64,000 nucleotides of DNA. It comes from Klebsiella phage KP182. Made by a program: the position numbers and the translations under genes. The DNA lies in sequence record OM337876.1; one strand, written 5' to 3'. Numbering within the stretch: position 1 is the first letter of the stretch; each line of letters begins with the position of its first letter. Below, one piece after another: positions 6,321-63,129 of the stretch. The notes beneath the pieces were generated by a model, which was not told where the DNA came from, did not search any database, and worked only from the letters and a program-made list of their open reading frames with translations.

Positions 6321-6350
6321 AATAGTACCACATCCTTGTGGTAAAGTAAA
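6321..6350 (-). promoter_or_regulatory. T4-type early promoter GTTTAC-N18-TACTAT with spacer stem-loop CCACA/TGTGG (PeSL-like); copy 1 of an identical 33-nt element
   Basis: minus-strand read AAAAAGTTGTTTACTTTACCACAAGGATGTGGTACTAT; identical to 20919-20949. Confidence 0.7.
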
Positions 6351-6357
6351 CAACTTT

Positions 6358-6765
6358 TTATACTAAACCTTGACGCTGTGATTCCGTCGGCTCTACATCA
6401 GCTTTAGGCAGAACTGCATAGTTGCCTTGAAACACTACGTTTACTAAGGTTTTACCGTCTTCTTCCCACTCATCAGTGACAAGAACATTTTTGTGCAGCG
6501 ACAGATTAGTGGCTGAATTAGTAGAACTCACCGATTGGGTAATAACATTGTCCAGTGAATTTACATGTACCCACTTGCGCAGATAGCTTTCACTAGATTC
6601 AACGAATTTTTTCAAGCAGTGGATGTAATCGCCAAAATCTTCACGGTAAATCTTATACCCAGATTTACCGTCATTACGATTAACTACTTTAACGATTACG
6701 CCACTGTGACCAACCCACTTACCACCAATTACTTTAACGTTTTCACCTACAACTAAATCTTTCAT
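6358..6765 (-). CDS. KOW-domain-like hypothetical protein
   Basis: N-terminus GENVKVIGGKWVGHSGVIVKV resembles the KOW motif (NusG/L24 type). Confidence 0.4.
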   Translation of the reverse strand: MKDLVVGENVKVIGGKWVGHSGVIVKVVNRNDGKSGYKIYREDFGDYIHCLKKFVESSESYLRKWVHVNSLDNVITQSVSSTNSATNLSLHKNVLVTDEWEEDGKTLVNVVFQGNYAVLPKADVEPTESQRQGLV

Positions 6766-6995
6766 CGTGTTTCTCTCAGTTTGTTAATGTAGAGCCATTA
6801 TATAATGGCTCTTTCATAAAGTAAATAGTTATCGGTGAGAAATTTCGCATCCAACGTCTACGCCGAACAGATACCCAGCTTCCCACCCTTTAGCCATCAT
6901 AGCCTTGGCCACCAGAACCATCGTTGGAGAGATTTCCGGGAGGATTTCCCGGTTGAACCACTCTTCGAAGTTTTCATCGAACTCAAACTCTTCCA

Positions 6996-7685
6996 TTAGC
7001 CACGCCCCTTAGGTAAACTCAGTGGATCGGTATCTTCTGGACTTGGTGCTTCGCTTAGGCCTAGAGCATAGCGTTGAGCATATTTAAGCATTAGAATATC
7101 TTTGGCACAGTCATGGATACTATCATGCGCGATAAATCCATCGAGCGTACCCTTTGGAAGAGGGGTAGTTGTCAGCCCACGAGTCAGAAGCAGCGATTCA
7201 ATTGCAGTACGAATGTCACGCTGATTCCAGAACTTGCATGGTTCTTCTTTAAATGTATCAATTTCTTCTTCGGAAATTCCTTGGGCTCGTTGAACATCGC
7301 GAAGACAATCAACAAAAATCGGAAAGTCAAAGCTCTGCCCACGACACCAGCCAAAGGAATCCCATGGGTGAATTCCATTATCAATCAGATATTGCTGGGC
7401 TTCTTTAATTCCAGCAATTACTGATAAATCGTCTGGCGTTGAGGCCAGGTTAGCCCGGGCTTCAGCTGATTGTTTCTTCCACCACTCAAGAGTAGACTTA
7501 CCAAACAACCGATGACCTTTCTGGGATTTAAGGTCAAACTTAATACGATGACCACGATTAACCAGCTCATCAAAACTCTCGATAATTTCTGGGTCAGAAT
7601 CAAAGGTGATTAGCGCAAGGTCAATCACAGAAGAGCTTGACACATTTCCGAATGTTTCAAAATCAATAATAAAGTCTTTAGCCAT
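6996..7685 (-). CDS. dexA: exonuclease A (DEDDh 3'-5' exonuclease)
   Basis: 229 aa; N-terminus DFIIDFETFG matches the T4 DexA Exo I motif; size and position match. Confidence 0.85.
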   Translation of the reverse strand: MAKDFIIDFETFGNVSSSSVIDLALITFDSDPEIIESFDELVNRGHRIKFDLKSQKGHRLFGKSTLEWWKKQSAEARANLASTPDDLSVIAGIKEAQQYLIDNGIHPWDSFGWCRGQSFDFPIFVDCLRDVQRAQGISEEEIDTFKEEPCKFWNQRDIRTAIESLLLTRGLTTTPLPKGTLDGFIAHDSIHDCAKDILMLKYAQRYALGLSEAPSPEDTDPLSLPKGRG

Positions 7686-7932
7686 TTTGAGCCTCTAGCA
7701 TAAATTTAATTTCGCGTAACTGGCAACCAATATATTCGCTCAGATACACCTTTGGGTCATATCCTGTAAACCAAGTGATAGCATTAGCGTTATCCGCTAT
7801 ATCACGAAGCTCATTCAGAACTGTATCAATTTTAATGTTAATAGCACGCTTAACATTATCCGGTGCTTCAAACTTAGATTCTTGTAAGCCAACAATCATT
7901 GTTTGAAGGTCTTCTAATTTCAATTCAAACAT
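7678..7932 (-). CDS. hypothetical protein
   Basis: 84-aa ORF between dexA and dda. Confidence 0.4.
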   Translation of the reverse strand: MFELKLEDLQTMIVGLQESKFEAPDNVKRAINIKIDTVLNELRDIADNANAITWFTGYDPKVYLSEYIGCQLREIKFMLEAQNG

Positions 7933-7938
7933 ATTACC

Positions 7939-9270
7939 TCACACATAAAATACATCATATCGACCTCGGGTAGTACCAACATATAATAACTGCTGTGCGA
8001 GAGAAGCATCTGCCATGTGAATGCATGGAGTATAAATGAAGCTTCTGTCAATTGAGATACCCTGGGCCTTATGGAAAGTTGAAGCCGGCAATGCTTTCAC
8101 TTTATGAAACTTACGCTTAGCATCCCAGAACTCAGACCAAGGAGCTTTACCTCCTTTATTCCAATTCTTATATGTATCTGCAGTTTTTGCCAGGAAGAAT
8201 TGAAACTTATTCATTTCTTCTTCGGATGAGATGACACAGATTTTCTCTCTAGCGTACTCTTCATCATCGCCATAGGTTTCAATATCTAATACCCAATGAC
8301 GAACCAGATATTCACCTGGAACACCTCTGGCACCCAAAAACGTGGTGGTTTCAACTGCATCTAATATGCGAACAAACTGACCATTATTGAAAAGAATTTC
8401 GCTGAATTTCTTCCCCTCAAATTTAAGTTCCTTGGTAAGAGGTTCTTGCATAACAACAATCTCACCTACTACGAATGGTCGGTCAGTTTCGTATATTCTT
8501 CGTCTGATTATTTCGTTCAGTTTATCAACAGATTTATTCGTGAACGCAAGCATTCTGTTTTCAAATAAATCTTCTGGGGTTTTAACTAAATTAAAATAAT
8601 TTAGCATAAAATCTTTAAGGGCAGTTCCTTTCGTAAACCCACGGACACCATGACCATCAACTACACAGTCACGAATCCATCCACCATTTCTGATTTCGGT
8701 AGCGACTTCAATGATTGGGGCATTACTCCGCATCACCTCGGTCAAATGAAGTTGTAAGAAATCTTTATGAGTGAAGAATGGACTCAACGCAGGTTCATTA
8801 CTTCCAGGTTCTACTGGACGAATTTGAGCCTTATCACCAATGGCAATGACAATACACCAAGCAGGAATAGTTGCCATCAAAATCTTAAACAGCTTACGGT
8901 CATACATTGAAGCTTCATCACAGATGAGAACTCGAATAGACGCCATATCTGGAGCTTTCTTTTGTTCAAACAGAACGTTTTCTTCATATGTCGTCGGGTT
9001 AATTTTCAGAAGACTATGAATAGTACTGGCCTGCATTCCGCTGAGCTTAGATAAAACCTTTTTGGCCCCATGCGTAGGTGCTGCCAACGCAATACCAGAG
9101 ATACCCTGAGAAATCAAAGCATCAATGATAAATTTGGTTAAAGTTGTTTTACCTGTACCGGCAGGTCCATTAATCGTAATGTGTTGTCCTTTAGCTCCTT
9201 GTTTGACCATTTCAATGACTTTATTAAAAATCGCTTTTTGACTTTCTTTTAACTGGTCAAACGTAATCAT
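7939..9270 (-). CDS. dda: Dda DNA helicase (SF1B)
   Basis: 443 aa; INGPAGTGKTTLTKFIIDALIS Walker A and ~70% identity to the remembered T4 Dda along its length. Confidence 0.93.
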   Translation of the reverse strand: MITFDQLKESQKAIFNKVIEMVKQGAKGQHITINGPAGTGKTTLTKFIIDALISQGISGIALAAPTHGAKKVLSKLSGMQASTIHSLLKINPTTYEENVLFEQKKAPDMASIRVLICDEASMYDRKLFKILMATIPAWCIVIAIGDKAQIRPVEPGSNEPALSPFFTHKDFLQLHLTEVMRSNAPIIEVATEIRNGGWIRDCVVDGHGVRGFTKGTALKDFMLNYFNLVKTPEDLFENRMLAFTNKSVDKLNEIIRRRIYETDRPFVVGEIVVMQEPLTKELKFEGKKFSEILFNNGQFVRILDAVETTTFLGARGVPGEYLVRHWVLDIETYGDDEEYAREKICVISSEEEMNKFQFFLAKTADTYKNWNKGGKAPWSEFWDAKRKFHKVKALPASTFHKAQGISIDRSFIYTPCIHMADASLAQQLLYVGTTRGRYDVFYV

Positions 9271-10416: not shown

Positions 10417-11094
10417 CTAAGCTATAGTAACACTAAAGTAGTCCATAAGTAAACCAGATTTTTCAACTTTGTTATGATCCACCACTTTGAACTTAGTTCC
10501 CATCGGTAACATCCTTTCTTGTTCTTTATCAATCATCTCGATGTTAGCGCTTCTGCGCTGAGCAACGTTATCAATCAAATCATTTGGGCGAATGAATTCA
10601 GAATCCGGAGCAGTAATTAAAAGCGATTTCATGTTGGTATGATAATCAAATGATTGATGGCAATCATTGACTTCAATGACTACAAAGGTCGAGTAATGCC
10701 ATTTGCCTGCAAATTCTCGGGCAATTGTTTCATCTGTTGTGAATGATGCTACCTTTCCAAAGTCAAATTTCTCGCCTTTAATAAGGGCGTCATAAAATGC
10801 TTTAGCCTCACGACACGATAGACCTCTATAGAGAATGTCACTGTTATCAATTTGATGACGTCTAACGATAGAGTCAAGTTTCTTATGAAATTCTTCGCCA
10901 ATCTTATCGTTCATGCATTGCCACAGAATTGACTGTTCTTTGCAGTCAAAACGATTGGCTAACGCTTCCCATGCGCTTAAATCATACACAGGTAATCCTC
11001 TGTGCCGGCGCGCGGAATTCAGAATATCAATAGAATGAATGCTTTCTGCTAGCATAGCTTGTGGGTTTAATGAAATAGCCATGATATTCTCCAT
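10417..11094 (-). CDS. ModA/ModB-family mono-ADP-ribosyltransferase (single copy)
   Basis: 225 aa; R (YRGL), STT (SFTTDE) and EQE (ExE) motifs of R-S-E ARTs; position of T4 modA/modB. Confidence 0.65.
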   Translation of the reverse strand: MENIMAISLNPQAMLAESIHSIDILNSARRHRGLPVYDLSAWEALANRFDCKEQSILWQCMNDKIGEEFHKKLDSIVRRHQIDNSDILYRGLSCREAKAFYDALIKGEKFDFGKVASFTTDETIAREFAGKWHYSTFVVIEVNDCHQSFDYHTNMKSLLITAPDSEFIRPNDLIDNVAQRRSANIEMIDKEQERMLPMGTKFKVVDHNKVEKSGLLMDYFSVTIA

Positions 11095-11111
11095 TTTTGG
11101 TTACGAGAGGT

Positions 11112-11141
11112 ATCTTATCATGGCTTTTTGGAAGAGTAAAC
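11112..11141 (-). promoter_or_regulatory. T4-type early promoter GTTTAC-N18-TAAGAT upstream of the mod gene
   Basis: minus read AAAGTAGTTTACTCTTCCAAAAAGCCATGATAAGAT. Confidence 0.6.
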
Positions 11142-11341
11142 TACTTTGTGAAATTATTTTGCCCACGGAGACCAGGGCGGCGGGTCAGACCAGATTGAAG
11201 CTAGTTCATCTAGAAGAGCTTCTGGGGCTTTAATACCATACTTCTGTATAATTATACGGTATTCGTCTTTGATGTCCTTAGAAATCACTGGATGAACCTG
11301 AACCTCTTCCTGAGGCTCTTCCATCATTTCAAACAAATCCA

Positions 11342-14760: not shown

Positions 14761-15050
14761 CCGAGAATCCAGCTTGCAATTGTGAAGTTATCAAAATTAG
14801 CATCGCAGTACAGAGCATAGTTCAGTTTAATTGCTGCGCCATCATTGGAGATTTCTGCCTGAACTTCTTTCATCTTGCTTGGGTCAGTGTTATCAATGAT
14901 ATGACCTACATCAGCACGAATCTGCTCAGCAACATCTTTTTCATCTGCAGTCATTGACCATTCGCAGAGGTCTTTGTCATAGTTCGCCAGAGCGGGAACA
15001 GCAGAGCAACTTGATACTGCGAAGATTAAAGCAAGTACAATCTTTTTCAT
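14757..15050 (-). CDS. sp: Spackle periplasmic protein (superinfection exclusion / lysozyme-domain inhibitor)
   Basis: 97 aa from MKKIVLALIF...; ANYDKDLCEWSMTAD...LNYALYCDANF matches T4 Sp; signal peptide; start moved to the internal MKK with GAGGAAA RBS. Confidence 0.88.
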   Translation of the reverse strand: MKKIVLALIFAVSSCSAVPALANYDKDLCEWSMTADEKDVAEQIRADVGHIIDNTDPSKMKEVQAEISNDGAAIKLNYALYCDANFDNFTIASWILG

Positions 15051-15081
15051 TTTGTTTTCCTCAGTTTGTTTCAGTAAGGCC

Positions 15082-15111
15082 ATAGTAACATGGCCAAACT
15101 TAAAAGTAAAC
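15082..15111 (-). promoter_or_regulatory. early promoter GTTTAC-N18-TACTAT with spacer stem-loop GGCCATG...CATGGCC
   Basis: minus read AAAGATAGTTTACTTTTAAGTTTGGCCATGTTACTATGGCC. Confidence 0.65.
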
Positions 15112-15344
15112 TATCTTTTGAATAATTTTTCGAGGACTTCGTCGGATGTCAAATTCTTGGTTGGAAGGTATATCGCAGAGTTAACCCAGATACCTTCGTC
15201 ATTATATGCCTTAACTTCACCATAGTCATATGAAGATAAATCTGCTTTGTTGTAAGCTATGACTCCACGATGGACGCTATCAGACGCCGTCACCACAAAG
15301 GAGCGACCTGATTGGTCGCGAATTACGCTAAACACAAAAATCAT
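15111..15344 (-). CDS. Dmd-position protein (candidate antitoxin against RnlA/LsoA-type toxins)
   Basis: 77 aa; located between sp and gene 41 exactly as T4 dmd (61.5); sequence similarity not verified. Confidence 0.4.
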   Translation of the reverse strand: MIFVFSVIRDQSGRSFVVTASDSVHRGVIAYNKADLSSYDYGEVKAYNDEGIWVNSAIYLPTKNLTSDEVLEKLFKR

Positions 15345-20442: not shown

Positions 20443-20886
20443 TCAGTTAGACATGCATTTGTTGTAGATGTGATTTTGGAGAGATTTTAACTGCTCCATA
20501 CGTTGTTTATGCTCATTATAACTCAATCCGCCGTTAGCAAAATCAGTTAAACGAATCTGGTCATTCACTGCTGCCGCTTGGGCAGTGCACGTACGTTCTT
20601 TTTGAGTTTTACGCAGACGCTTAATTTCTTCCAGTTCATGCTTATTCTGCTCAATCATGTCAAGTTCCATCGCAGATAGCTGGCGATTAGGATTAGCTTT
20701 TTCTTTCGCCAACCGACGCTCAACCGCGAGCGATTCAGCAGAGACCTGGTTGCTAGCACGATAGTATCCTACAGTACCGCCAATTGCTCGCACCTGTCCA
20801 ACAGAAGAAGCCGGGACGATATCACCTTGTGGCATTTGACAACCAGTCAGCGTGAGAGCAACAATAACAGCAAGTAACGATTTCAT
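20443..20886 (-). CDS. lipoprotein with coiled-coil (imm.1 position)
   Basis: 147 aa; MKSLLAVIVALTLTGC lipobox. Confidence 0.5.
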   Translation of the reverse strand: MKSLLAVIVALTLTGCQMPQGDIVPASSVGQVRAIGGTVGYYRASNQVSAESLAVERRLAKEKANPNRQLSAMELDMIEQNKHELEEIKRLRKTQKERTCTAQAAAVNDQIRLTDFANGGLSYNEHKQRMEQLKSLQNHIYNKCMSN

Positions 20887-20918
20887 TGTAATCTCCTCAG
20901 TATGTTATTTCGAGAGCT

Positions 20919-20949
20919 ATAGTACCACATCCTTGTGGTAAAGTAAACA
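20919..20949 (-). promoter_or_regulatory. early promoter (PeSL-like), copy 2 of the identical 33-nt element seen at 6321-6350
   Basis: identical sequence tagtaccacatccttgtggtaaagtaaacaactttt. Confidence 0.7.
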
Positions 20950-20955
20950 ACTTTT

Positions 20956-23664
20956 TTAAAAATCGAACATGTCAAGAAGAGACGATTTCTCTTCATAGTC
21001 TAACCCTGCCGCTTCAGACATACCCGTCAGAGGTTTAACGAACGATTTTTGGAACAGAACACTGTGGTCAAGCCACACTAGAACTTCCTGTCGGATTTCT
21101 TGTGGCAGCTCAGTGCCCGATGGCCATGCCATACATTTCTCGCCGTACGGGTTACCTTCACGCAGCGGGATGACCATCACCTTCTCGCCTTCCATGATTG
21201 GTGTTATACCTTCAAATCCTGCGGTAGCTCGGTTATACGCTAAAGCACCTTTAACGTGATACGGAGTACCTTTATCTGGATATCCTGCGCCATCATCATA
21301 CTTACCGATGTTGTTGGCGGTCTTAACTTCTGCGATTACTTTATAGTCAAGCTCACGATACTCAGACTCAAACTGCTTATAATATTGCTGTAAAGATTCT
21401 TCACCTTCCTGCAGCATACGCCGAATAGATTCTTCCAATGCATTCTGAACAGCAGTTGGTGTAGAACTTTGCTGTGTTTCCATACCCATGATTTTCAGGT
21501 GTGGTTCTGCATATCGAGTACCTTCCATATCATACACATTCAGAGCATATCGTTTCTTCGCTTTCCAGAATCCGCCAATGCCGTTTGACCCCAACGGAGG
21601 ACAAGAAATAGCTTCACGGTCCATGAACATTAAATGTTCTTTGTTGTTCATGTATTCACACATCTCACGATATGATTGGTCAATCCAAGGTTCCATTTTC
21701 TTCTTGCCGAATTGGTTCAGGAATTCGACCAAATCGTTAGTTTCTTTGAAACGCTCAAGACCTACCTTCTCGATAACCTTATCAACACAAACGTAAATTG
21801 AGTCAGTATCACCAGCTACTACAAATGAATGACCTTCGGTGCCACATACCTTGTTGAGATATTCATTAACTTTACGTTCAATCCATTGAATTGCCATTTG
21901 ACCAAACAACGTGATTGCTGATGCGTTACGCAAATCATAATAACGGAAGTAAATGTTACCCAATGCGCCATAAAGTGAGTTGATCAGAATCTTACGGTTT
22001 AACTGGTTAGTGTTACCCAAGATTTCAGCGTGTTTACATTCAAACATCAGTTTGTCAAGACACTCTTCGGTATATGTCAGCAGTTCTGCTTTCATATCAT
22101 CAGAGAAATCTTCATAGACATTAACTTCTGTGAATTTATCGATAGTTCCAAACTTCTTATCATTCAGAACCTTTTTAATCAGTTCTTGATTTCGTTTGGC
22201 ACCCATCATTTTATTTTTCCACTCTTTACGCTGATAAAAAACCTTCGCGATTTCAACTGGAATGACACCATCTACATCTTTACGATACATCCAACCATTT
22301 GGTGAACATGAATATTCGTCAGACGGACGAGGTGCAGTCTTGTTAATGTACTCACCCAACGGATGAAGTTTAAACTGTCCAACGATGGTTTCTGGTGAAA
22401 TATTGACCTGTCGAATGATTGACGGATACAGAGATGTCAAGTCAAACGACATGATATAACGATATGCAGCAGGAACTGGTTCCTTAACATACGCACCAGG
22501 ATATGACTGTTTAACATGAGAACGACTTTGCGGAATAACTTTGTCCTGTTCTTTCAGACTGTTAAAGATGATTGCGTCCCATGTTTTAATTGGACTCATT
22601 ACACCTTGGTATGGCATCTTCGCATAATAAGACATCGAGATAGCCAGGTCAATAAATCCGCGAACAGCATCAATCGCTTGTACTGATTCAACGTCGATGA
22701 TGTTATACGAAATATACCGTTGGTGATTAGTTTCACGCAACTTATTGATCGGACCGTCATATGCTAATTTACCTTTCTTGGTTTCATAATAAGCAATGAA
22801 ATCCAACTTATACGTCGGTTGGTTCGTGAAACTAAATTTCTTATACAAATCCATGTAATCAAGAATAGTCACACCCATGATAGAATAAATTTCTTTATCA
22901 CCATACATGTTTGTGATAATCTTAGATGAAACTTTGTTCAGAGGAGAGAACCGTTTCATCGTACGCTCACCAAGAATCTGTTTCACACGATTCATGATGT
23001 ACGGAATATCAAATCCTTCAATGTTCCAGCCAGTAAAAATTGCTGGGCATTTCTGTTCCCAAAGATTGATGTACTCAAGCATCATTTCTTTTTCTGAATT
23101 GAACGGCATATATACTACGCGGTCAAGAATATGTTGTGGAACTTCATCACCGCCTTCGGAATCTAAACGAGCAGCGAGTTTCTTGTCCCACTCGGAAACA
23201 GAACCATAAAGAGAATGCAGTAAATCAAATACGTAGAACTTGTCATCAACCGAATCATAATGAGTGATAGCGTCAATTTCATATTCTGCTTTCATTGGGT
23301 CTGGGAATTGAGATGCAGTAACCTCAATGTCACAGTTTGCGATTCGGATGAATTTTTTATTATAAACGATTTCTGAACCGTAAGTATCACTGATATACGC
23401 GAGTTTGAAATCATCCATACCCATTGCTTCCATTCCCATATCTTCCATACGACGCATCCAATCGCGTGCATCTTTCATAGTTGGGAATGTATTCTTCTTG
23501 CAATACTTGCCATAGATGTCTTTGTACTTTGTTTCTTCCATGCAATGACTAAACATAACAGGAGAATACGGAACACGACGCATGCGTTCCTCACCAGTAG
23601 AATCGATATAACGTTCTACGATGTCATTGCCTAGAGTTTCAACGCTAATATAAAATTCTTTCAT
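20956..23664 (-). CDS. 43: DNA polymerase (family B)
   Basis: 902 aa; size and synteny match T4 gp43 (898 aa); exonuclease and polymerase motifs (e.g. YGDTDS-like 'AGDTDSIYV'). Confidence 0.96.
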   Translation of the reverse strand: MKEFYISVETLGNDIVERYIDSTGEERMRRVPYSPVMFSHCMEETKYKDIYGKYCKKNTFPTMKDARDWMRRMEDMGMEAMGMDDFKLAYISDTYGSEIVYNKKFIRIANCDIEVTASQFPDPMKAEYEIDAITHYDSVDDKFYVFDLLHSLYGSVSEWDKKLAARLDSEGGDEVPQHILDRVVYMPFNSEKEMMLEYINLWEQKCPAIFTGWNIEGFDIPYIMNRVKQILGERTMKRFSPLNKVSSKIITNMYGDKEIYSIMGVTILDYMDLYKKFSFTNQPTYKLDFIAYYETKKGKLAYDGPINKLRETNHQRYISYNIIDVESVQAIDAVRGFIDLAISMSYYAKMPYQGVMSPIKTWDAIIFNSLKEQDKVIPQSRSHVKQSYPGAYVKEPVPAAYRYIMSFDLTSLYPSIIRQVNISPETIVGQFKLHPLGEYINKTAPRPSDEYSCSPNGWMYRKDVDGVIPVEIAKVFYQRKEWKNKMMGAKRNQELIKKVLNDKKFGTIDKFTEVNVYEDFSDDMKAELLTYTEECLDKLMFECKHAEILGNTNQLNRKILINSLYGALGNIYFRYYDLRNASAITLFGQMAIQWIERKVNEYLNKVCGTEGHSFVVAGDTDSIYVCVDKVIEKVGLERFKETNDLVEFLNQFGKKKMEPWIDQSYREMCEYMNNKEHLMFMDREAISCPPLGSNGIGGFWKAKKRYALNVYDMEGTRYAEPHLKIMGMETQQSSTPTAVQNALEESIRRMLQEGEESLQQYYKQFESEYRELDYKVIAEVKTANNIGKYDDGAGYPDKGTPYHVKGALAYNRATAGFEGITPIMEGEKVMVIPLREGNPYGEKCMAWPSGTELPQEIRQEVLVWLDHSVLFQKSFVKPLTGMSEAAGLDYEEKSSLLDMFDF

Positions 23665-34559: not shown

Positions 34560-34606
34560 ATTTTCCTCTCGAGTTAAACGGTATGCTGTTATCCGTTGAT
34601 AGGACT

Positions 34607-34636
34607 ATGGTATCACTCATCAACTAGCTTGTAAAC
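34607..34636 (-). promoter_or_regulatory. early promoter GTTTAC-N18-TACCAT
   Basis: minus read CAAAGTTGTTTACAAGCTAGTTGATGAGTGATACCAT. Confidence 0.55.
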
Positions 34637-34744
34637 AACTTTGTGAAATGAATTTAAAATAAAAGAGAGGTCCCATAGGAACCTCTAAATGAAGGGTATA
34701 GAAATATACAGAAGGTGGTCAAGATGACCTTAGAAAGGAACCGG

Positions 34745-43113: not shown

Positions 43114-43902
43114 TTATTCCTCAAGCATTATAACTTTGCTTGGGCGCTTATAGAAAGCATGAGTTTTATCATCTTTCGCTAATTCAAATGTAGCAGTAAA
43201 CTGTACTTTGCCTCTGTATTCAAACGGAATACTTTTTGGAAGGGAGCCGTAAACCGTAGCTCCATTCTCAAGCACAACCATCATCTTACATTGTACGCCG
43301 TAATAGTCTTCATAAACTTTTACTGACGTTACGGTACCAGAGACAGTCACTCGTCCTTCCGGTGCATCCCCTTTATTCTTATTCAGCTCATTGAATATAT
43401 TATCAAAGACCTCTTTTGAATGTTCCTGGATAGCCTCTAAGATGCTCTTATGAGCTCTAACTTCTGCTATAACAACATCTGTGCCATCTTGCAATTTCCA
43501 CTCTTTATATGGAATGCGTACTTCAAGAGGATAACCATACTCCCGAAGTTCTTTGTACTCTTCTTGAGTTAAGCGGATTTTCCACCAGCCGTGGTCACTG
43601 GTATACTCAGGCTTATCCAGTGAATCCAATTCTGTAACATATGGCAAGTAACTACCTGCGTGATAAGCTTCAACTTCACCTAATTCATTTTCCCAAAGAT
43701 AACCATCAAAGGGAGCATGAGGACGATCGTCTTTGCCCCAAGTAGGAGCTACCACTTTATCAAAGTATTCACGACCGAAGCGGGTCTTCGCCCATCCAGC
43801 ATTCAACTCCTCGGCGCGTTTTTCAACTTTCGCTCGGTGTGCTTGGCGGGCTACACGATTTTCTTCAACAAGTGCAGAGATAATCTCGGTTAAAGTTTTC
43901 AT
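43114..43902 (-). CDS. hypothetical protein (start at MKTLTEIIS)
   Basis: 262 aa; GGAGAA RBS; early promoter just upstream. Confidence 0.45.
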   Translation of the reverse strand: MKTLTEIISALVEENRVARQAHRAKVEKRAEELNAGWAKTRFGREYFDKVVAPTWGKDDRPHAPFDGYLWENELGEVEAYHAGSYLPYVTELDSLDKPEYTSDHGWWKIRLTQEEYKELREYGYPLEVRIPYKEWKLQDGTDVVIAEVRAHKSILEAIQEHSKEVFDNIFNELNKNKGDAPEGRVTVSGTVTSVKVYEDYYGVQCKMMVVLENGATVYGSLPKSIPFEYRGKVQFTATFELAKDDKTHAFYKRPSKVIMLEE

Positions 43903-43930
43903 TTTATTCTCCAGTTTGGTTGACGAGACC

Positions 43931-43960
43931 ATCTTATCAACAGCCTCGCCGAAAGTAAAC
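43931..43960 (-). promoter_or_regulatory. early promoter GTTTAC-N18-TAAGAT
   Basis: minus read CAAAGTAGTTTACTTTCGGCGAGGCTGTTGATAAGAT. Confidence 0.55.
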
Positions 43961-44226
43961 TACTTTGTGAAAAATTTTCTCCACAGCAGAACCGCCTCTC
44001 TACGAGATACTTCTACCGCTCCTAGAGATACTGCATCTTTACGACGGCAATCACGCAAATCATAGTGTGGAACTCGCTTATCCTGGAACCAAGAACGTTT
44101 CATTCCGATGGCTTCTGCCATAGCGTGTAACTCATCAAGGTTGTCGCTAAACATATGACAGTTCTTTACTTGATGACCTCTCATTTTCCAACCATGATTC
44201 ATCAAGACATCTACGTATACTGTCAT
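43960..44226 (-). CDS. DUF4031-family protein
   Basis: 88 aa; MTVYVD...HMFSD.LDELHA.A..IG.KR.WFQ....PHYDL pattern typical of DUF4031. Confidence 0.55.
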   Translation of the reverse strand: MTVYVDVLMNHGWKMRGHQVKNCHMFSDNLDELHAMAEAIGMKRSWFQDKRVPHYDLRDCRRKDAVSLGAVEVSRREAVLLWRKFFTK

Positions 44227-44388
44227 TTCTGATTATCGATGTAGGTTTCAATGATGAACTGTGCTAAACACAGAAGATTATCTTCTGAAGGAGAATCTAC
44301 TAAATTCTCAACCATTTCAGAAATAGTTCCAAAAGCTTCTTCAGTATTGAACATTTCTTGAAGTTCGTTCCAAGTAGGTGCTTTCATT
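44227..44388 (-). CDS. 54-aa acidic protein, translationally coupled (ATGA) to the DUF4031 gene
   Basis: hand-translated MKAPTWNELQEMFNTEEAFGTISEMVENLVDSPSEDNLLCLAQFIIETYIDNQK; GAGGAG RBS. Confidence 0.4.
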
Positions 44389-44416
44389 TCAATCTCCTCA
44401 TTAGTTAACGGAAGCT

Positions 44417-44446
44417 ATCTTATCATGGCTTTTCTAAGATGTAAAC
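44417..44446 (-). promoter_or_regulatory. early promoter GTTTAC-N18-TAAGAT (shares the 'atcttatcatggcttttt' core with the promoter at 11112)
   Basis: minus read TTGTTGTTTACATCTTAGAAAAGCCATGATAAGAT. Confidence 0.55.
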
Positions 44447-44451
44447 AACAA

Positions 44452-44469
44452 AAGGGCCCGAAGGCCCTT
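44452..44469 (-). terminator. terminator AAGGGCC-CGAA-GGCCCTT
   Basis: after the stop of 44468..44755; U-rich trailer UUUUGUUGUUUAC. Confidence 0.65.
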
Positions 44470-45761: not shown

Positions 45762-46739
45762 TTATTTCAGCATTGTTACTTCAGCAATTGTCCGCCAATT
45801 TTTACGGTCAGTCGCGACGAAATCACCAATATAAAGAGCAGTACGGAGAGATACATTACGCAGACGATTTACGTTATCTTTCATAAATTCCAAAACTTCA
45901 ATAACTTCAGAATTTCTTAACCCACGGTTCTGTAACATAGAAGTGGTCATTATTACATCTTGAACACGAACCATAATCTCTTCATTAGTGTGAACACCAA
46001 GGTCAAGATAAACCGAACGTGATACCAGAGCTTGAAGATGCGGAGCAAGTTTAGAACCGCGCTCTAATTCACGGTCAATATCAACGTTAGTGATAAAGAC
46101 CACAGTACCTTCAAACTCAAACTCATTAGGAATTCCTTTATCTTCCAAGAAAGAAGATGCAGTGCTCCAACATACTTTACGTTTCTCCCCTGAATCCAAA
46201 GCAGCTTTCAGAAGGTTAAGAATGTCCATATCAGAGAATACATCCACATCATCAATAAGCAGAACTGAATTTGCTTCACGTGATTCCCAGAGACGGCAGT
46301 ATAAACCAATTCCTGAGATTTTACCGTTCACTGATTTGTAATCAATAGCGTTAGTATCATGAGCATGTTGTAATGCTTTATCCAAAGAGTAAGTCTTACC
46401 GATACCTGCTGCTCCGGAGATAATCAGAGAACGAATGTTCCCGTGGATTAAACCGTTAGTCATTAATCCCATAACGTTAAAGCGTTTCTTGATACGCTCT
46501 TTCATTTCATCAACGGATTCAACAACTTCAATTTTAGACGCTACACCGTCAACTGTAATATCATCTTTGAATACCCAAACACCACGCTTTTTACCATTAA
46601 GTTCAACAAAGACTTTACCATCACCCTGGCGAGAATCTTCAGCACTTAAGCTATCCGGGAACCACTCACCGAGTAACTCATAAGTACCTGAAATCTCTTT
46701 GCCGAAGTAAATCCCTTTCTTGATGGTGATAGTTGACAT
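45762..46739 (-). CDS. P-loop (AAA-like) ATPase, hypothetical
   Basis: 325 aa from MSTITIKKG; Walker A 'GAAGIGKT', Walker B 'VLLIDDVD'. Confidence 0.5.
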   Translation of the reverse strand: MSTITIKKGIYFGKEISGTYELLGEWFPDSLSAEDSRQGDGKVFVELNGKKRGVWVFKDDITVDGVASKIEVVESVDEMKERIKKRFNVMGLMTNGLIHGNIRSLIISGAAGIGKTYSLDKALQHAHDTNAIDYKSVNGKISGIGLYCRLWESREANSVLLIDDVDVFSDMDILNLLKAALDSGEKRKVCWSTASSFLEDKGIPNEFEFEGTVVFITNVDIDRELERGSKLAPHLQALVSRSVYLDLGVHTNEEIMVRVQDVIMTTSMLQNRGLRNSEVIEVLEFMKDNVNRLRNVSLRTALYIGDFVATDRKNWRTIAEVTMLK

Positions 46740-46776
46740 TTTATTCTCCGTTACTCTGTTTTGTTTTGATGGAGCT

Positions 46777-46806
46777 ATAGTATCATTATACAGCTCCAAA
46801 GTAAAC
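46777..46806 (-). promoter_or_regulatory. early promoter GTTTAC-N18-TACTAT with spacer stem GGAGCT...AGCTCC; part of a 45-nt promoter-leader cassette duplicated at 63062-63105
   Basis: minus read GTTTACTTTGGAGCTGTATAATGATACTATAGCTCC. Confidence 0.65.
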
Positions 46807-46816
46807 TACTTTTTAA

Positions 46817-47032
46817 TTATTTTTCTAAAATTTCATTGATGTAGTAAGGACGAACCTTTGAACCGAGATAGAAGTCATCCACAAAATCAATCAAGTTGTC
46901 AGTTTCACCACGGATGATAGCAAGCTTAGAGAATGCTTCTCCTACCATCATTGGTTCAAATTCTACACCGTGAGCTTCAGCAGCTTTAAAGGCTTTATCA
47001 ATGTTGTTTACGACGATTTCTAAAGTTTTCAT
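46817..47032 (-). CDS. hypothetical protein (start MKTLEIV)
   Basis: 71 aa; GGAGAA RBS. Confidence 0.4.
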   Translation of the reverse strand: MKTLEIVVNNIDKAFKAAEAHGVEFEPMMVGEAFSKLAIIRGETDNLIDFVDDFYLGSKVRPYYINEILEK

Positions 47033-47070
47033 TTTATTCTCCATTGTATCTGTTTGGGTGGTACATGTCT

Positions 47071-47100
47071 ATAGTATCATCAGCTAACGAGCTTGTATAC
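47071..47100 (-). promoter_or_regulatory. early promoter GTATAC-N18-TACTAT
   Basis: minus read AAGTAGTATACAAGCTCGTTAGCTGATGATACTAT. Confidence 0.5.
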
Positions 47101-47128
47101 TACTTTATGCATTCTTTTGAAACAAAAA

Positions 47129-47148
47129 GAGGAGCCCGAAGGCTCCTC
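47129..47148 (-). terminator. terminator GAGGAGCC-CGAA-GGCTCCTC
   Basis: 8-bp stem; trailer UCUUUUUGUUUC. Confidence 0.7.
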
Positions 47149-50473: not shown

Positions 50474-50962
50474 TCATTCTTCGCCATCATCAAAGTCGTA
50501 GTAATCATAATCACAACTGTCAAGATAAGAATCCATAAATTCTTGTTGACGGCGGAAATCTTCAGAAGGCGTCAGTCTGTCTGCATATGCTTGATCATCT
50601 GGATCGCTGAACTTATTTTCTTGGAGCTCTTTGATGAACTGTTCAGCTTCTTCACGAGTCCAAAAACCACGATTAAGATTATGAACAGAACGCTTTTCAC
50701 CTGGCTTGAATACACCCATATCATGGGCAGACCGTTCAGTTGAATAACTTTCAGTTTTTCCATGATAATTTTCATATTCACAAATCACTTGGAAGAAAGG
50801 AGATTTACGTGAATATACACCACGAAGACCAAGTTCTACATCATATGTGCCTGAAGCAACAATGTAACGCGTTATTTCGCCGGTTTTAGTTTCTGTGCGA
50901 TTAACACCACACACGTGATAAAAGATTTTTCCGGGTTGAAGCTCAGTGGTTAACTTAATCAT
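50474..50962 (-). CDS. hypothetical protein with a highly acidic C-terminus
   Basis: 162 aa; DYDYYDFDDGEE tail. Confidence 0.4.
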   Translation of the reverse strand: MIKLTTELQPGKIFYHVCGVNRTETKTGEITRYIVASGTYDVELGLRGVYSRKSPFFQVICEYENYHGKTESYSTERSAHDMGVFKPGEKRSVHNLNRGFWTREEAEQFIKELQENKFSDPDDQAYADRLTPSEDFRRQQEFMDSYLDSCDYDYYDFDDGEE

Positions 50963-50994
50963 AATGTTTTTCTCGTTTGGTTGTTGATATGTCT

Positions 50995-51023
50995 ATAGTA
51001 TCATGTAATGAAGGGAAGTAAAC
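50995..51023 (-). promoter_or_regulatory. early promoter GTTTAC-N17-TACTAT
   Basis: minus read AAAAGTTGTTTACTTCCCTTCATTACATGATACTAT. Confidence 0.55.
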
Positions 51024-51042
51024 AACTTTTTGAAAAGAAAAT

Positions 51043-51058
51043 GCCTCCCGAAGGAGGC
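51043..51058 (-). terminator. terminator GCCTCC-CGAA-GGAGGC after rI.-1
   Basis: trailer CAUUUUCUUUUC. Confidence 0.65.
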
Positions 51059-55369: not shown

Positions 55370-55828
55370 TCAATTAATGTGTATAACTTTTGTGCTGATT
55401 TTACCTTTCAAACGTTTATCATTAACGAATGCCATACGACACTTTATACTAGGTCCTTTTCCCGGTCTTGGAACATCCATAGTAAACCCTAGCCACAGAT
55501 TTCCATCCGTAATTTCTAACCGCATTGGCTTATACTCGATGTTTTCATCAATGTCTTTTGGGTCAATTGGAAGCCAAGGCATTGCTAAGAATTCATTAAT
55601 TTCTTTAAGATGATTAGGAATTTTGGAAAGAACAGAGAATACATACTCTTCATCAATTTCACGTTGGATAGCACGGTCCAACAAATGATCAGAGTACTTA
55701 GTGAAGAAAGGCTCTTTGCCCTCAGCCTTAGCTCGGGCACGAACTGATAAATTCAAAGAGCGAAAAGCTTCCTCAAACTTACGGCGCAGTTTAGTTCTGC
55801 GAATGAATACTTCTGGGTTAGTTGACAT
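55370..55828 (-). CDS. regB: RegB endoribonuclease
   Basis: 152 aa; EVFIRR.KLRR.FE..FR......KYS.HLLDRAIQREIDE.YVF......EITDGNLWLGFT matches T4 RegB. Confidence 0.9.
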   Translation of the reverse strand: MSTNPEVFIRRTKLRRKFEEAFRSLNLSVRARAKAEGKEPFFTKYSDHLLDRAIQREIDEEYVFSVLSKIPNHLKEINEFLAMPWLPIDPKDIDENIEYKPMRLEITDGNLWLGFTMDVPRPGKGPSIKCRMAFVNDKRLKGKISTKVIHIN

Positions 55829-55855
55829 AGTTCATTCTCCTTTGTTTGTAGGGCC

Positions 55856-55885
55856 ATAGTATCATGGCCCGTAAGGAAAGTAAAC
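55856..55885 (-). promoter_or_regulatory. early promoter GTTTAC-N18-TACTAT with spacer stem GGGCCATG...CATGGCCC
   Basis: minus read AAAAGTAGTTTACTTTCCTTACGGGCCATGATACTATGGCCC. Confidence 0.65.
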
Positions 55886-55891
55886 TACTTT

Positions 55892-56173
55892 TTAATATTT
55901 TTCTTCTGGCTGAAACACTGAACGACACGCCCACATAGAAGCTTCCTTCAAGTGTTGAATCGCGTTGCGAATTTGAGTAATACGCTCATGTGCTAAATCA
56001 AATTCTTTGTCGCTCATTGTGCTAACATCTAAATTCATGTATTTTTCAACATGCTCTTCTTCCAATGCTTTAAAAATTAATCCAAGACGAATTTCCGCGT
56101 CTTTGATAGCATTTACTTTACCAATCTTTTCATCGGTATGTGGCTTATATCCTTTGATATCTTCAATTGCCAT
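55892..56173 (-). CDS. vs.x-position small protein (93 aa); low-confidence candidate for a Vs.4/Acb2-like cyclic-nucleotide sponge
   Basis: size (93 vs 94 aa) and location next to regB only; no sequence confirmation. Confidence 0.2.
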   Translation of the reverse strand: MAIEDIKGYKPHTDEKIGKVNAIKDAEIRLGLIFKALEEEHVEKYMNLDVSTMSDKEFDLAHERITQIRNAIQHLKEASMWACRSVFQPEEKY

Positions 56174-57889: not shown

Positions 57890-58459
57890 TTAACGGGCTG
57901 CATTAGCAACGGCGTAAGCGTACTGAACATTAGCGTCTTTAAACGTACCTTTAGAGGTATCTAAATCTGCCTTAAATCCGCCTTTAGTCATAATCTCGGC
58001 GAATTCTTTACGGAAGGCCATGGCGTCAAGATTTTTCCATGTTGATTTGTGCTTGGCAAATTCACGACCAGCGAAGTTGACAGCCTTAGCCAATTTATTA
58101 TCAATAACCCATTTACCAGCTTTAGGCACAAACACCGGGCCTTTCTGCTTAGAGAATAGTTTTAAATTCCAGCGCCGAAGGTCTCCATCAGCTTTAACAA
58201 AATCTGGGTCCAAGTTACTAGCAACAACATCTTGAATATGGCCAAATTTAAGTCCATCAACTTCAATATTTAGGTCGTTACGCCAGCGAAGTCCTTCCCA
58301 GGCGAAGGCTTTAAAGTCTGAAGCCTTTGTAGCTAAATACCGCTCAATAGGAGCTGTTTTAGGGTCAAAGCCGTTTCCTCGGTAGGTCCACTCATCTTTA
58401 TTAATGCCATTGACCTTTCCTGCATAAGCTTCAGTAATAAATTCTTTATATGTTTTCAT
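57890..58459 (-). CDS. internal head protein (IPIII-like) with capsid targeting sequence
   Basis: 189 aa; N-terminus MKTYKEFITEAYAG matches the T4 IP CTS (MKTYQEFIAE); upstream of e as T4 ipIII/ipII. Confidence 0.6.
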   Translation of the reverse strand: MKTYKEFITEAYAGKVNGINKDEWTYRGNGFDPKTAPIERYLATKASDFKAFAWEGLRWRNDLNIEVDGLKFGHIQDVVASNLDPDFVKADGDLRRWNLKLFSKQKGPVFVPKAGKWVIDNKLAKAVNFAGREFAKHKSTWKNLDAMAFRKEFAEIMTKGGFKADLDTSKGTFKDANVQYAYAVANAAR

Positions 58460-58511
58460 TTTATATCCTTTAAGTTAATACGTGTCATAGTAGCCTCCAT
58501 TTAATAAGGCT

Positions 58512-58541
58512 ACTATACCACATTACCGTCTCAATGTAAAC
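58512..58541 (-). promoter_or_regulatory. early promoter GTTTAC-N18-TATAGT
   Basis: minus read AAGTAGTTTACATTGAGACGGTAATGTGGTATAGT. Confidence 0.5.
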
Positions 58542-59020
58542 TACTTAATTGATTTAGCGTAACGAATAGCGCCGCGATCGTTTACGAACGCAATTTTACC
58601 ATTACGCATGTACATTGTAACAGTACGCTGGTAACCGTTAGAAGTTTTGCCAGACTGATAACCTACTAATGCAAAGTTATCTTCACCAGGTTTGTTCTGC
58701 TTAGACTTAATACGCTCATGACCATGCGCCATTAAGGTGCGTGCATCGCCAGATGCTACTGCTTTGCGAGAAGACTCATCTTCAATAGAAGAGGTGAAAT
58801 CATCAAATGAATCAAACTTGGCATGGCTCTTATTGTATAACTTGCCGTCTACTACGTAGTTATATCCAACAACGTCCATTTCAATTTCTGTACCATCTTC
58901 TAGCGTGGCGGTCATCTTCTGACCTTTTTTAAATTTCAGAAGATTGCTTCCAACAGATTCAGTCATTACGCCAACTGTTGCTAAACGGGATTCATTTAAA
59001 AATTCTTGATAGGTTTTCAT
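58541..59020 (-). CDS. internal head protein (IP-like) with capsid targeting sequence
   Basis: 159 aa; N-terminus MKTYQEFLNE = CTS. Confidence 0.6.
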   Translation of the reverse strand: MKTYQEFLNESRLATVGVMTESVGSNLLKFKKGQKMTATLEDGTEIEMDVVGYNYVVDGKLYNKSHAKFDSFDDFTSSIEDESSRKAVASGDARTLMAHGHERIKSKQNKPGEDNFALVGYQSGKTSNGYQRTVTMYMRNGKIAFVNDRGAIRYAKSIK

Positions 59021-59538: not shown

Positions 59539-59544
59539 GAGTAT

Positions 59545-59853: not shown

Positions 59854-59860
59854 AATAACC

Positions 59861-61515: not shown

Positions 61516-62114
61516 TTCTGCACCCTCTCACGGCAGTATTTGATAAATTCATCAATGATTAATTGTTTGCCTACCATGTTGTTAGAGTCAAACATACTCA
61601 TAACCTTTGATGGCAATTCATTAATGCAGTAATTTAAATAATTGCTATAATCATCCTGAGATGTCACATATTTAACTAGGTTAATGCCAAGACGATAGCT
61701 ATTTTTATTATGAATAATCTCAATAACTACTGTGTACGTTGTTGAACTAGAGGTAGAATATTCATCGGCATTAGTACGGGCTGATTTTAAATTTGATGGA
61801 GAATCGTTAAAAGAGTAGATTCCGTACCGAAGTGCAAAAATATCCACAAGCTTAACTCCGTCGGAAATAGACGAAATGCTAGAAATTAAGTTTTTCAGCT
61901 TGGAATAATCTTTAAGAACGATAGCCCGCGGCAAAACTGTAGTGTTATACCCATTATAACGAGTTTTCCAATTCTCAGGCCGAGTATCAATATAAGCAAA
62001 TTTCTCAAGAATATCAGTGATTTCTTTTGGAAATCCTGCTGCAATTAATTCTTTAATTTGAGGTGTTGCCATTGGAATATCTCCAGCACATTCGTATAAC
62101 ATTTTATTATCCAA
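61512..62114 (-). CDS. hypothetical protein
   Basis: 200-aa ORF. Confidence 0.4.
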   Translation of the reverse strand: MDNKMLYECAGDIPMATPQIKELIAAGFPKEITDILEKFAYIDTRPENWKTRYNGYNTTVLPRAIVLKDYSKLKNLISSISSISDGVKLVDIFALRYGIYSFNDSPSNLKSARTNADEYSTSSSTTYTVVIEIIHNKNSYRLGINLVKYVTSQDDYSNYLNYCINELPSKVMSMFDSNNMVGKQLIIDEFIKYCRERVQK

Positions 62115-62117
62115 ATA

Positions 62118-62133
62118 GGGGCCCGAAGGCCCC
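62118..62133 (-). terminator. terminator GGGGCC-CGAA-GGCCCC
   Basis: after the stop of the PspA-like gene; trailer UAUUUGGAUAAUAA (weak U-tract). Confidence 0.55.
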
Positions 62134-62139
62134 GGTAGA

Positions 62140-62733
62140 TTATTTCAGAGAGTTCAGATATTCCTGAACATCAGCAGAAGTGGTTTCGATACCAGGCTGA
62201 CTGCCATTGAAGGTTTCAACTTTCATCATGATATCTTGGACATCAACCTTAGCGAGTTCAGCGATTTCAATCACGTCATCAGCAGAGGTAATACCCAGAG
62301 CAGAAGCATTGCGAGTTTCACGGATGTATTCAAGTTTAACTGCAAGGTCCAAGCGCTGCTCGTCAAGCTTAACTACCGTCTGCTCAATTTGGGCACGCAT
62401 TTCTTTATATTCACCAGCTTTCTCACGCAGAGCAGTTGCGGTACGGCGATACAGAAGACCAAGCTTAGCCAGAGTTTCAACCGGAGCACCTTCTGCAAGA
62501 AGACGACGAATTTCACGCTCTTTGGAGGCACCAGCCTGGTCTTTTTCGTCAGCGAGTTTCAACAGACGTTTTTCTTCATTTACTGATTTAACATGCGTTG
62601 TACGCAGTTTAGTGATTTCATCAATAATACGGTTTGCTGCCATCGTATACTGGTCTTCAATAGAGGTATTCTGTGCAACAAAGGTACCAAATTTAGAACG
62701 GATGAATTCAACAAGTTTTTTCAGAATAGACAT
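62140..62733 (-). CDS. PspA/IM30-like coiled-coil protein (phage shock protein A family)
   Basis: 197 aa; long amphipathic heptad-repeat helices, length and charge pattern like PspA; relatively GC-rich coding sequence. Confidence 0.4.
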
Positions 62734-62779
62734 TTTATTTCCTCAGTAGGTGGGAGTTCATTATAACTCCCCAAAATTA

Positions 62780-63070
62780 TTAGCAGTTAATTACTGCTTC
62801 AATTCGTTTGGTTAAAGCACTAGCAGTTTTTGCGAATTTAATTTGAACAGTTTCGGTAGGAGCTTCTTCATGGTAAACTCGAACGTAGTACTCTTCAACA
62901 GCAGGCCAATCTTTACGAACATGCTTAATCAAATCTTTAAGTTCACGAGTTTCTGCTACATTGAACACTGCGTGTTCATGTTCACCTTTAATCCAAATCG
63001 CGCGATAACGATCAGGAGTACCATATTGATTATAACCACGTTCAATTTGGATAAAGTTGAATTTAGACAT
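62780..63070 (-). CDS. hypothetical protein (start MSKFNFIQIERG)
   Basis: 96 aa; shares an identical promoter-leader-RBS cassette with the ATPase gene at 45762. Confidence 0.45.
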   Translation of the reverse strand: MSKFNFIQIERGYNQYGTPDRYRAIWIKGEHEHAVFNVAETRELKDLIKHVRKDWPAVEEYYVRVYHEEAPTETVQIKFAKTASALTKRIEAVINC

Positions 63071-63099
63071 TTTATTCTCCGTTACTCTGTTTTGTTTTG

Positions 63100-63129
63100 A
63101 TGGAGCTATAGTAACCGAGTTGACTGGCG
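63100..63129 (-). promoter_or_regulatory. early promoter GTTTAC-N18-TACTAT (cassette copy 2)
   Basis: minus read CAAAGTTGTTTACAACGCCAGTCAACTCGGTTACTAT. Confidence 0.6.

Follow-up and report, generated by a model that had tools for sequence, protein, structure and literature searches.

Predicted early promoters of the promoter early stem-loop type in a T4-like Klebsiella phage

In the 64,000-nt stretch of Klebsiella phage KP182 analysed here (sequence record OM337876.1; hereafter the window, numbered from its first nucleotide), GTTTAC-type promoter sites recur on the minus strand ahead of unrelated genes. Some of them carry inverted repeats and four of them form two pairs of exact duplicates, which raises the question of whether they are plain early promoters or composite cassettes that have taken part in gene shuffling. 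Such cassettes, termed promoter early stem-loops (PeSLs), were described in RB49/phi1 by Arbiol et al. 2010 as an AT-rich tract, a sigma-70-type promoter, a stem-loop, a Shine-Dalgarno (SD) sequence and an ATG, with the stem-loop most often between the -35 and -10 elements or overlapping -10; promoter activity, terminator activity and mini-circle formation were shown experimentally (PMC2839356). Comeau et al. 2014 derived the T4/PST consensus TTTACW-N17-TAYWAT, with the stem-loop just upstream, and found PeSLs also in KVP40/nt-1 (PMC4122927). Both papers view the stem-loop as a generic terminator only. We find that the PeSL label is apt and that the feature is real: the window very probably contains a set of about 15 sigma-70-dependent promoters for early genes of a T4-like Klebsiella phage, arranged as PeSL-type cassettes that occasionally act as homology patches for recombination.

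A 10-kb piece of the window matches Klebsiella phage vB_KpnM_KpV477 (Straboviridae, Tevenvirinae, Jiaodavirus) at 99.3% identity, and the window overall is about 99% identical to this phage and was assigned to the same genus. More than 160 related Klebsiella phage genomes exist. The window was aligned with KpV477, PKO111, Metamorpho, W1W2-10 and W14-2, its internal protein (IP) locus also with phage 17-11, and a wider comparison covered 27 more distant T4-like loci. The pattern GTTTAC-N17/18-TA(C/A)(T/G)AT has ten exact matches, all on the minus strand, compared to 0.08 expected from shuffles. A two-block position-weight matrix trained on these ten sites returns 15 sites, again all on the minus strand (Table 1), so that the 13 counted in the initial annotation were about right. 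Sites beyond the exact pattern have a -10 of TATAGT, TATTAT or TACCAT, a -35 of GTATAC, or a 19-nt spacer. The same matrix yields 90 sense and no antisense sites in six related genomes, and 122 sense sites versus a single antisense site in the 27 distant loci. A generic sigma-70 scan for TTGACA/TATAAT gave 53 sites in the window versus 58.8 expected and missed the GTTTAC-type promoters.

The cassettes, named in the following by the first position of their -35 hexamer, are roughly 90-110 nt long and comprise, in order, an A/T-rich UP-like tract ending in AAAGT(A/T), GTTTAC, the spacer, the -10 hexamer (TACTAT, TAAGAT, TATTAT, TATAGT or TACCAT), a leader, an SD sequence and an ATG. The spacer measures 18 nt, once 17 and once 19, and often ends in TGn; the 25 nt upstream are 68-92% A+T (11 sites scored). 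Thus, the -35 and -10 elements about 17 nt apart and the AT-rich tract of PeSLs are present at the 15 sites. The leader is A/C-rich, typically contains ATCAA and starts near (Y)ATCAA. In 13 of the 15 cassettes a GGAG/GAGG-type SD sequence and an ATG follow 27-48 nt past the -10, as expected of PeSLs; the exceptions are 51023, which lacks GGAG/GAGG, and 10454, where the srd start lies about 85 nt downstream. Identical SD-ATG strings stand ahead of unrelated genes. Moreover, unrelated genes behind different cassettes have the SD sequence and first codons ACTACTGAGGAGAATAnnATGAAAACTGAAAA in common (6263-6300, and about position 12,890 of L001 in an extra module of KpV477), indicating that the conserved unit reaches a few codons into the coding sequence. 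The cassettes are intergenic and concentrated in variable regions, as in PeSLs: eight of the 15 lie within the 43-63 kb block of small variable genes, and none inside the replication block from gene 43 to gene 46/47 at 21-31 kb.

A hairpin was found in 11 of the 15 cassettes, within or next to the promoter as in PeSLs. In six (55885, 46806, 43960, 15111 and the identical pair 20948/6351) it overlaps the promoter, with RNA folding z-scores of -2.2 to -5.0 against shuffles. In the other five (51023, 47100, 44446, 34636 and 4862) it lies just upstream of the promoter, is GC-rich and is followed by a U-run, and four of these five have a UUCG loop; they thus have the shape of Rho-independent, intrinsic terminators. 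The six promoter-overlapping hairpins are followed by the A/C-rich leader instead of a U-run. The initial annotation had placed at least five inverted repeats inside the spacer. These are real and more stable than shuffles, but only CCACA/TGTGG is internal to the spacer. All other stems have only their 5' arm in the spacer; their 3' arm begins with the last two -10 bases or just after them, which leaves the -10 in the loop. The arms given with CATG/CATG ends, such as GGCCATG/CATGGCC, are correctly GGCCAT/ATGGCC and GGGCCAT/ATGGCCC.

This geometry extends beyond the window. Among 114 unique promoters from the 27 T4-like loci, 36% exceed 95% of shuffles in folding stability and 31% exceed 99%, compared to 14% and 6% of random genomic segments at the same thresholds. 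Pairing is most frequent in the 3' half of the spacer and immediately behind the -10, which itself lies in the loop. Ahead of the nrdC.10 homologues in these loci (57-99% protein identity), an early promoter with a hairpin occurs in nearly every phage, and the hairpin sequences are unrelated; in some cases the hairpin encloses the -10, in others it encloses the -35 and precedes a U-run. Stem lengths and positions vary so strongly among loci that they do not fit a single alignment. An Rfam search of the whole window gave no family match at the gathering score.

The substitutions found in the stems suggest pairing in the sense RNA. Within the genus the 46806 stem passes from ggagCt/aGctcc via ggagTt/aGctcc to ggagTt/aActcc, a compensatory series C-G, U·G, U-A. 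The 4862 stem has G·U and A-U variants, with a quite different 7-bp stem in Metamorpho, and an A/G polymorphism in the stem shared by 20948 and 6351 retains A-U or G·U. Isolated internal mismatches read on the sense strand are G·T in ten independent clusters and A·C in one, a count of 11 clusters only, some of them in low-complexity AT-rich sequence. Both the wobble asymmetry and the compensatory changes bear on the possibility that the inverted repeats act in the DNA instead, either as palindromic operators bound by a phage or host protein that controls the shut-off of early promoters or as cruciforms that are cut by endonuclease VII and seed recombination. The phage does encode endonuclease VII, and because the stems extend over the -10, open-complex formation would be directly affected by a protein bound there or by an extruded cruciform. 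Moreover, a perfect palindrome of 22 nt, AGAGCCATTATATAATGGCTCT, is centred on the -10 of a sub-threshold promoter-like site ahead of the motB-like gene (6812-6791). Yet a 10:1 excess of G·T over A·C and a compensatory series that passes through U·G are expected for sense RNA and not for duplex DNA or cruciforms. A sequence-specific binding protein is disfavoured by stems that are unrelated between loci and phages while their geometry is kept, and five cassettes carry canonical terminator hairpins with U-runs instead. We therefore regard an action of the repeats at the DNA level as very unlikely.

In the reading that we prefer, host RNA polymerase would fire from each cassette immediately after infection. 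As the cassette's own transcript does not contain the 5' arm, which is upstream of +1, the hairpin would form only in transcripts reading through from upstream promoters. There it might attenuate or terminate transcription, or protect the 3' end of the upstream message and so stabilise it. A tentative extension, which we consider possible but on balance doubtful, is that the hairpin with the -10 in its loop is a conserved structural element across T4-like phages that is set by geometry rather than sequence and acts in read-through early RNA. One possibility would then be a cistron insulator that blocks 3' exonucleases after RegB or RNase E has cut the downstream GGAG leader; alternatively, read-through may be attenuated without a U-run. 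In either case, promoter and RNA element would be deliberately superimposed.

The anatomy of the cassettes agrees with T4-type PeSL architecture, as initially proposed, and matches both published descriptions. As in RB49/phi1, the parts are assembled in an intergenic cassette of roughly 100 bp, six cassettes have the stem-loop between the -35 and -10 elements or overlapping the -10, and the cassettes flank variable small genes, with some differences between close relatives probably explained by deletions between neighbouring cassettes. The RB49/phi1 PeSLs differ in their near-perfect TTGACA/TATAAT promoters and G-run/C-run stems, compared to GTTTAC, TAYWAT or TAAGAT and mixed-sequence stems in the window, and their activities are experimental, whereas the window cassettes are known from sequence alone. 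The T4/PST consensus fits the window sites, and five cassettes have, as in those phages, a stem-loop just upstream of the promoter, in the window with a U-run. Unlike in T4/PST, where stem-loops are upstream of the promoter, both placements are mixed in the window, and some -10 elements are TAAGAT. T4 early promoters, which are built from UP, -35, TGn and -10 elements plus further conserved positions (Hinton 2010, PMC2988021), likewise precede immediate-early genes and stand in tandem on one strand; embedded hairpins and recombination are outside that review's treatment of them. The searchable literature yielded no report linking PeSLs with Klebsiella phages or Jiaodavirus.

Short motifs are repeated ahead of many unrelated genes, and the recurring -35, -10, leader, SD and first codons could thus serve occasionally as homology patches. 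Crossovers at such patches would delete, insert or swap the first gene behind the promoter. Indel junctions within or at cassettes were found at 63071-63113, 58542, 34631, 15063, 4809 and 13061-13080. Crossovers inside cassettes account cleanly for four to five indels (e.x, IP, spackle and 34.6-kb loci); we infer recombination as their cause from where the junctions fall. At the e.x locus, two Metamorpho cassettes with AACGGAGAATAAA in common enclose an extra gene, and a crossover in this sequence would yield the arrangement of the window. In the leader of the spackle cassette, PKO111 and W1W2-10 contain an extra 295-bp gene between GAGGAAAMCA repeats. At 34636, homology with Metamorpho stops right after GTTTAC and returns at the following ATG, and Metamorpho has an extra gene in the interval. 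Behind 4862, W14-2 and W1W2-10 have another gene in place of the first one downstream (4607-4804), and the junction falls at the SD sequence (4809). At 13061-13080 the window lacks a 2.79-kb module that is present in KpV477 and PKO111 and comprises five genes in KpV477, including a DNA methyltransferase gene; one of its junctions is at TATAAT, and its own cassette begins about 22 nt from the other, with the first base of the -35 hexamer in KpV477 at 23 nt.

The IP locus is the most elaborate case. A 663-bp segment on the minus strand (57879-58542) is absent from KpV477, PKO111, Metamorpho, W1W2-10 and W14-2, and its junction coincides exactly with the 5' boundary of the -35 hexamer of the 58541 promoter. 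It bears the ipIII-like gene for an internal head protein (PHROG 5341), whose DNA is 88-91% identical to ipIII of Tequatrovirus (E. coli), well above the approximately 76% identity of the neighbouring nrdC.10 region to coliphages. Phage 17-11 has two tandem modules here, each with a promoter, the mini-ORF (short open reading frame) MTRINLKDIK* and an IP gene beginning MKTYKEFITEA, and the window locus would be the deletion product between two such modules. The stop codon of the mini-ORF overlaps the ipIII ATG; its peptide resembles the N-terminus of T4 DenV, and denV adjoins the IP gene in some relatives (Marfa, kv_tblp5). IP-locus shuffling in T-even phages (Repoila et al. 1994, as relayed in PMC4122927) is similar in that the ipIII-like gene stands in a tandem array of modules with a common promoter/leader and common 5' coding sequence (MKTYKEFITEA...) and varies in presence among close relatives. 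In contrast to the T-even case as summarised there, the repeat unit in the window includes the conserved 10-codon mini-ORF.

Two further segments near this locus vary. The block 58542-62743, which contains lysozyme e, nudE and small genes, shares about 91% identity with KpV477, compared to about 99% for the remainder of the window; it forms a mosaic segment with its boundary at the 58541 promoter. A 91-nt non-coding segment at 57724-57814 (containing cctacctgtaataaggtcgagcccaagtgcggtaa), without an Rfam match, is single in the window and present twice in PKO111 (L003 7176-7266 and 7698-7788), where it flanks an extra internal-protein gene.

How general the role of cassettes in shuffling is has to be judged from all indel sites. 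About eight of some 30 distinct sites touch a cassette, compared to about 13% of gene boundaries (binomial P = 0.034), an enrichment of about 2-fold that is fragile and hinges on the definition of touching. The remaining 22 or so lie at plain gene boundaries without cassette involvement, and one of the roughly 30 is a homing-endonuclease insertion. The proposal that the cassettes are recombination hot spots finds support at a handful of loci and does not account for most of the shuffling. These figures, and promoter positions that are orthologous and stable across the compared members of the genus, are what one would expect if the sites were plain strong early promoters that resemble each other, duplicates included, because of selection for an optimal sequence, with no special role of recombination. 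The several indels with both junctions in repeated cassette motifs speak against this, and so do the exact duplicates.

The initial annotation had reported two exact pairs. Both exist, with lengths of 38 and 48 nt and not 33 and 45 nt, and the second copy of pair 2 had been misplaced by 4-8 nt (at 63062-63105). The N-terminus TIAPSKQNRVTENKMS that the two proteins behind pair 2 were said to share is an in-frame reading of the untranslated leader; the real proteins, starting at ATG 46739 and 63070, share only Met-Ser. Selection for promoter strength cannot account for an identical 18-nt spacer (pair 1) or an identical 37-nt untranslated leader (pair 2) at two unrelated loci. The AGCTCC arm at 63107-63102 has a partner, GGAGCT, in the spacer at the nrdC.10 locus and none at the e.x locus, as expected for a footprint of copying from the nrdC.10 cassette, and 46735-46782 is the likely source copy because the arm has its partner there. 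In a distant phage (L033), agctccatcaa is kept at the nrdC.10 site. Most likely, the leader of pair 2 was copied from the nrdC.10 cassette into the e.x cassette by a single crossover in the TACTAT common to both, at a time before the divergence of these phages. The orphan arm is comparable to the degraded or half PeSLs reported near indels (PMC4122927). The cef cassette, which contains one copy of pair 1, has a 74-nt counterpart with 98.6% identity ahead of an unrelated membrane protein elsewhere in phage KPV15, which selection for promoter strength likewise leaves unexplained. This third copy lies outside the region corresponding to the window, and the match is confined to the 74 nt. Neither copy of pair 1 is at an indel junction in the six compared genomes, a point in favour of ordinary promoters. 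Taken together, the common origin of the duplicates by cassette exchange is supported, and we consider it unlikely that the sites are ordinary promoters shaped by selection alone.

Are the duplicates then traces of recent events? The initial annotation took them as cassettes that had recently moved or templated recombination, and the perfect identity of the copies, over 38 and 48 nt in a single genome, would agree with that. However, both pairs occupy the same two loci in KpV477, PKO111, W14-2, W1W2-10 and partly in Metamorpho, and in the relatives that carry them the flanks are only 88-95% identical. The 48-nt unit ahead of the nrdC.10-like and e.x-like genes is identical or has one change in PKO111 and W14-2; its e.x copy has two changes in KpV477 and a 1-nt deletion in W1W2-10. 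The core of pair 1, GTTTACTTTRCCACAAGGATGTGGTA, is found in E. coli T4-like phages as well, ahead of a 39.1-like gene and of a gene for 183 amino acids. The A/G polymorphism of pair 1 had seemed to co-vary between the two loci, suggesting concerted evolution, but IMG/VR genomes show all four two-locus combinations and thus no clean signal of an ongoing process; it is better read as neutrality between A-U and G·U in the stem. Both duplicates are ancient and conserved, and a recent move in this lineage is highly improbable. In the favoured scenario, both would be old products of exchange that selection has since kept constant, with the pair-2 crossover in the -10 hexamer and the nrdC.10 cassette as donor.

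At the Metamorpho orthologue of 20919-20956, ahead of imm.1 (gene 43/imm.1; L005 47340-47375), the CCACA-GGGA-TGTGG hairpin and a TATAGT -10 are retained, and a MotA-box-like GCTTAC stands in place of GTTTAC, which suggests that an early promoter has become a middle one while keeping its hairpin.

Several observations weigh against the interpretation as PeSL-type early promoters that promote exchange. The promoter activity of the 15 sites is deduced from their sequence, and we found no transcription data for this phage or genus in the searched literature. Core promoters are 92.4% conserved compared to 90.3% for flanking coding DNA, a difference that is not significant (Wilcoxon P = 0.2). Four of the 15 cassettes have no hairpin (63137, 58541, 11141 and 10454), and most hairpins straddling the -10 lack a downstream U-run and hence are no canonical intrinsic terminators. 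The small number of wobble clusters, the fragile enrichment at indels and the many junctions at plain gene boundaries belong here as well.

The coordinates of the cassettes and related features are collected in Table 1. Based on the KpV477 annotation the window is an early/middle gene region with topoisomerase gene 39, dda, srd, a modA-like gene, primase, gene 41, uvsX, gene 42, imm, genes 43, 45 and 46/47, nrdD/G, nrdC, tk, regB, e and nudE; all genes except one are on the minus strand. Classic early genes are among those headed by cassettes. The gene behind the 6351 promoter, initially listed as unknown, is cef (Pfam T4_Cef, E = 1.5e-26).

Table 1. Predicted early promoter cassettes and associated features of the window (SD, Shine-Dalgarno; z, RNA folding z-score).
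Feature	Span	Strand	-35	-10	ATG	Remarks
e.x-like gene (PHROG 3720), early cassette	63070..63162	-	63137-63132	63113-63108	63070	hybrid: own -35 and spacer, -10/leader/SD identical to nrdC.10 cassette; orphan 3' stem arm AGCTCC (63107-63102), no hairpin (z = -0.03)
ipIII-like gene, early promoter	58459..58566	-	58541-58536	58517-58512	58459	no hairpin
Mini-ORF MTRINLKDIK* (10 codons)		-			58488	between 58541 promoter and ipIII-like gene
regB, early cassette	55828..55910	-	55885-55880	55861-55856		hairpin GGGCCAT/ATGGCCC straddling -10, z = -4.97
51023 early cassette	50962..51058	-	51023-51018	51000-50995		17-nt spacer; upstream terminator hairpin GCCUCC-UUCG-GGAGGC and U-run (51058-51043)
47100 early cassette	47044..47148	-	47100-47095 (GTATAC)	47076-47071		upstream terminator hairpin GAGGAGCC-UUCG-GGCUCCUC and U-run (47148-47129)
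nrdC.10-like P-loop protein, early cassette	46739..46831	-	46806-46801	46782-46777	46739	hairpin UGGAGCU/AGCUCCA enclosing -10, z = -4.85
44446 early cassette	44387..44469	-	44446-44441	44422-44417 (TAAGAT)		upstream terminator hairpin AAGGGCC-UUCG-GGCCCUU (44469-44452)
43960 early cassette	43902..43985	-	43960-43955	43936-43931 (TAAGAT)		12-pair hairpin enclosing -10, z = -3.53; promoter and leader invariant in five relatives
34636 early cassette	34559..34681	-	34636-34631	34612-34607 (TACCAT)		upstream terminator-like hairpin AGAGGUUCC/GGGACCUCU and U-run
gene 43/imm.1-like lipoprotein gene, early cassette	20886..20973	-	20948-20943	20924-20919		spacer hairpin UACCACA-AGGA-UGUGGUA
spackle, early cassette	15050..15136	-	15111-15106	15087-15082		hairpin GGCCAU/AUGGCC straddling -10, z = -4.30
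ADP-ribosyltransferase gene, early cassette	11082..11166	-	11141-11136	11117-11112 (TAAGAT)		no hairpin
srd, early promoter	10424..10479	-	10454-10449	10429-10424		19-nt spacer; no significant hairpin
cef, early cassette	6293..6376	-	6351-6346	6327-6322		spacer hairpin same as 20948, z = -2.19
4862 early cassette	4804..4886	-	4862-4857	4838-4833 (TATTAT)		upstream terminator hairpin AGGACC-UUCG-GGUCCU
Sub-threshold promoter-like site ahead of motB-like gene	6791-6826	-				ATTTAC-N18-TATAAT
Pair 1, 38-nt exact repeat	6322-6359 = 20919-20956	-				UP-tract end, -35, spacer hairpin, -10
Pair 2, 48-nt exact repeat	46735-46782 = 63066-63113	-				TACTAT, leader, GGAG SD, ATGTC

Other elements of the region were noted alongside. 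The srd leader (about 10360-10424, minus strand) contains several short CTAG-based palindromes, ctagtgattatctag, tagaactag and ctagggacctag, in a region that is conserved across the genus with one substitution in Metamorpho. A terminator-like hairpin, AAAGGGCTTCGGCCCTTTT, occurs in two near-identical copies (96%) at 23729-23754 and 31029-31054. One copy is located between regA and gene 43; relatives have an additional small gene (about 180-200 bp) there, whose junction is at the hairpin. At 19482-19485, between gene 42 and the beta-glucosyl-HMC-alpha-glucosyltransferase gene, a 517-bp insertion with an HNH homing-endonuclease gene is present in Metamorpho and absent from the window.

Jiaodavirus phages are widely used in phage-therapy collections. 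Our analysis extends the PeSL concept to them, the Klebsiella-infecting genus, as a fourth branch of T4-like phages, and offers nucleotide-level examples in which the -35, the -10, the SD sequence and the first codons may have been the points at which crossovers added or removed small early genes. At the same time the concept is tempered, as most shuffling in the region needs no cassettes and exact promoter duplicates can be ancient. The wobble bias of the stems on the sense strand is a testable hint that the embedded hairpins may function in RNA. For annotation, the 15 sites would define early transcription units headed by promoters of a kind that generic TTGACA/TATAAT scans miss.

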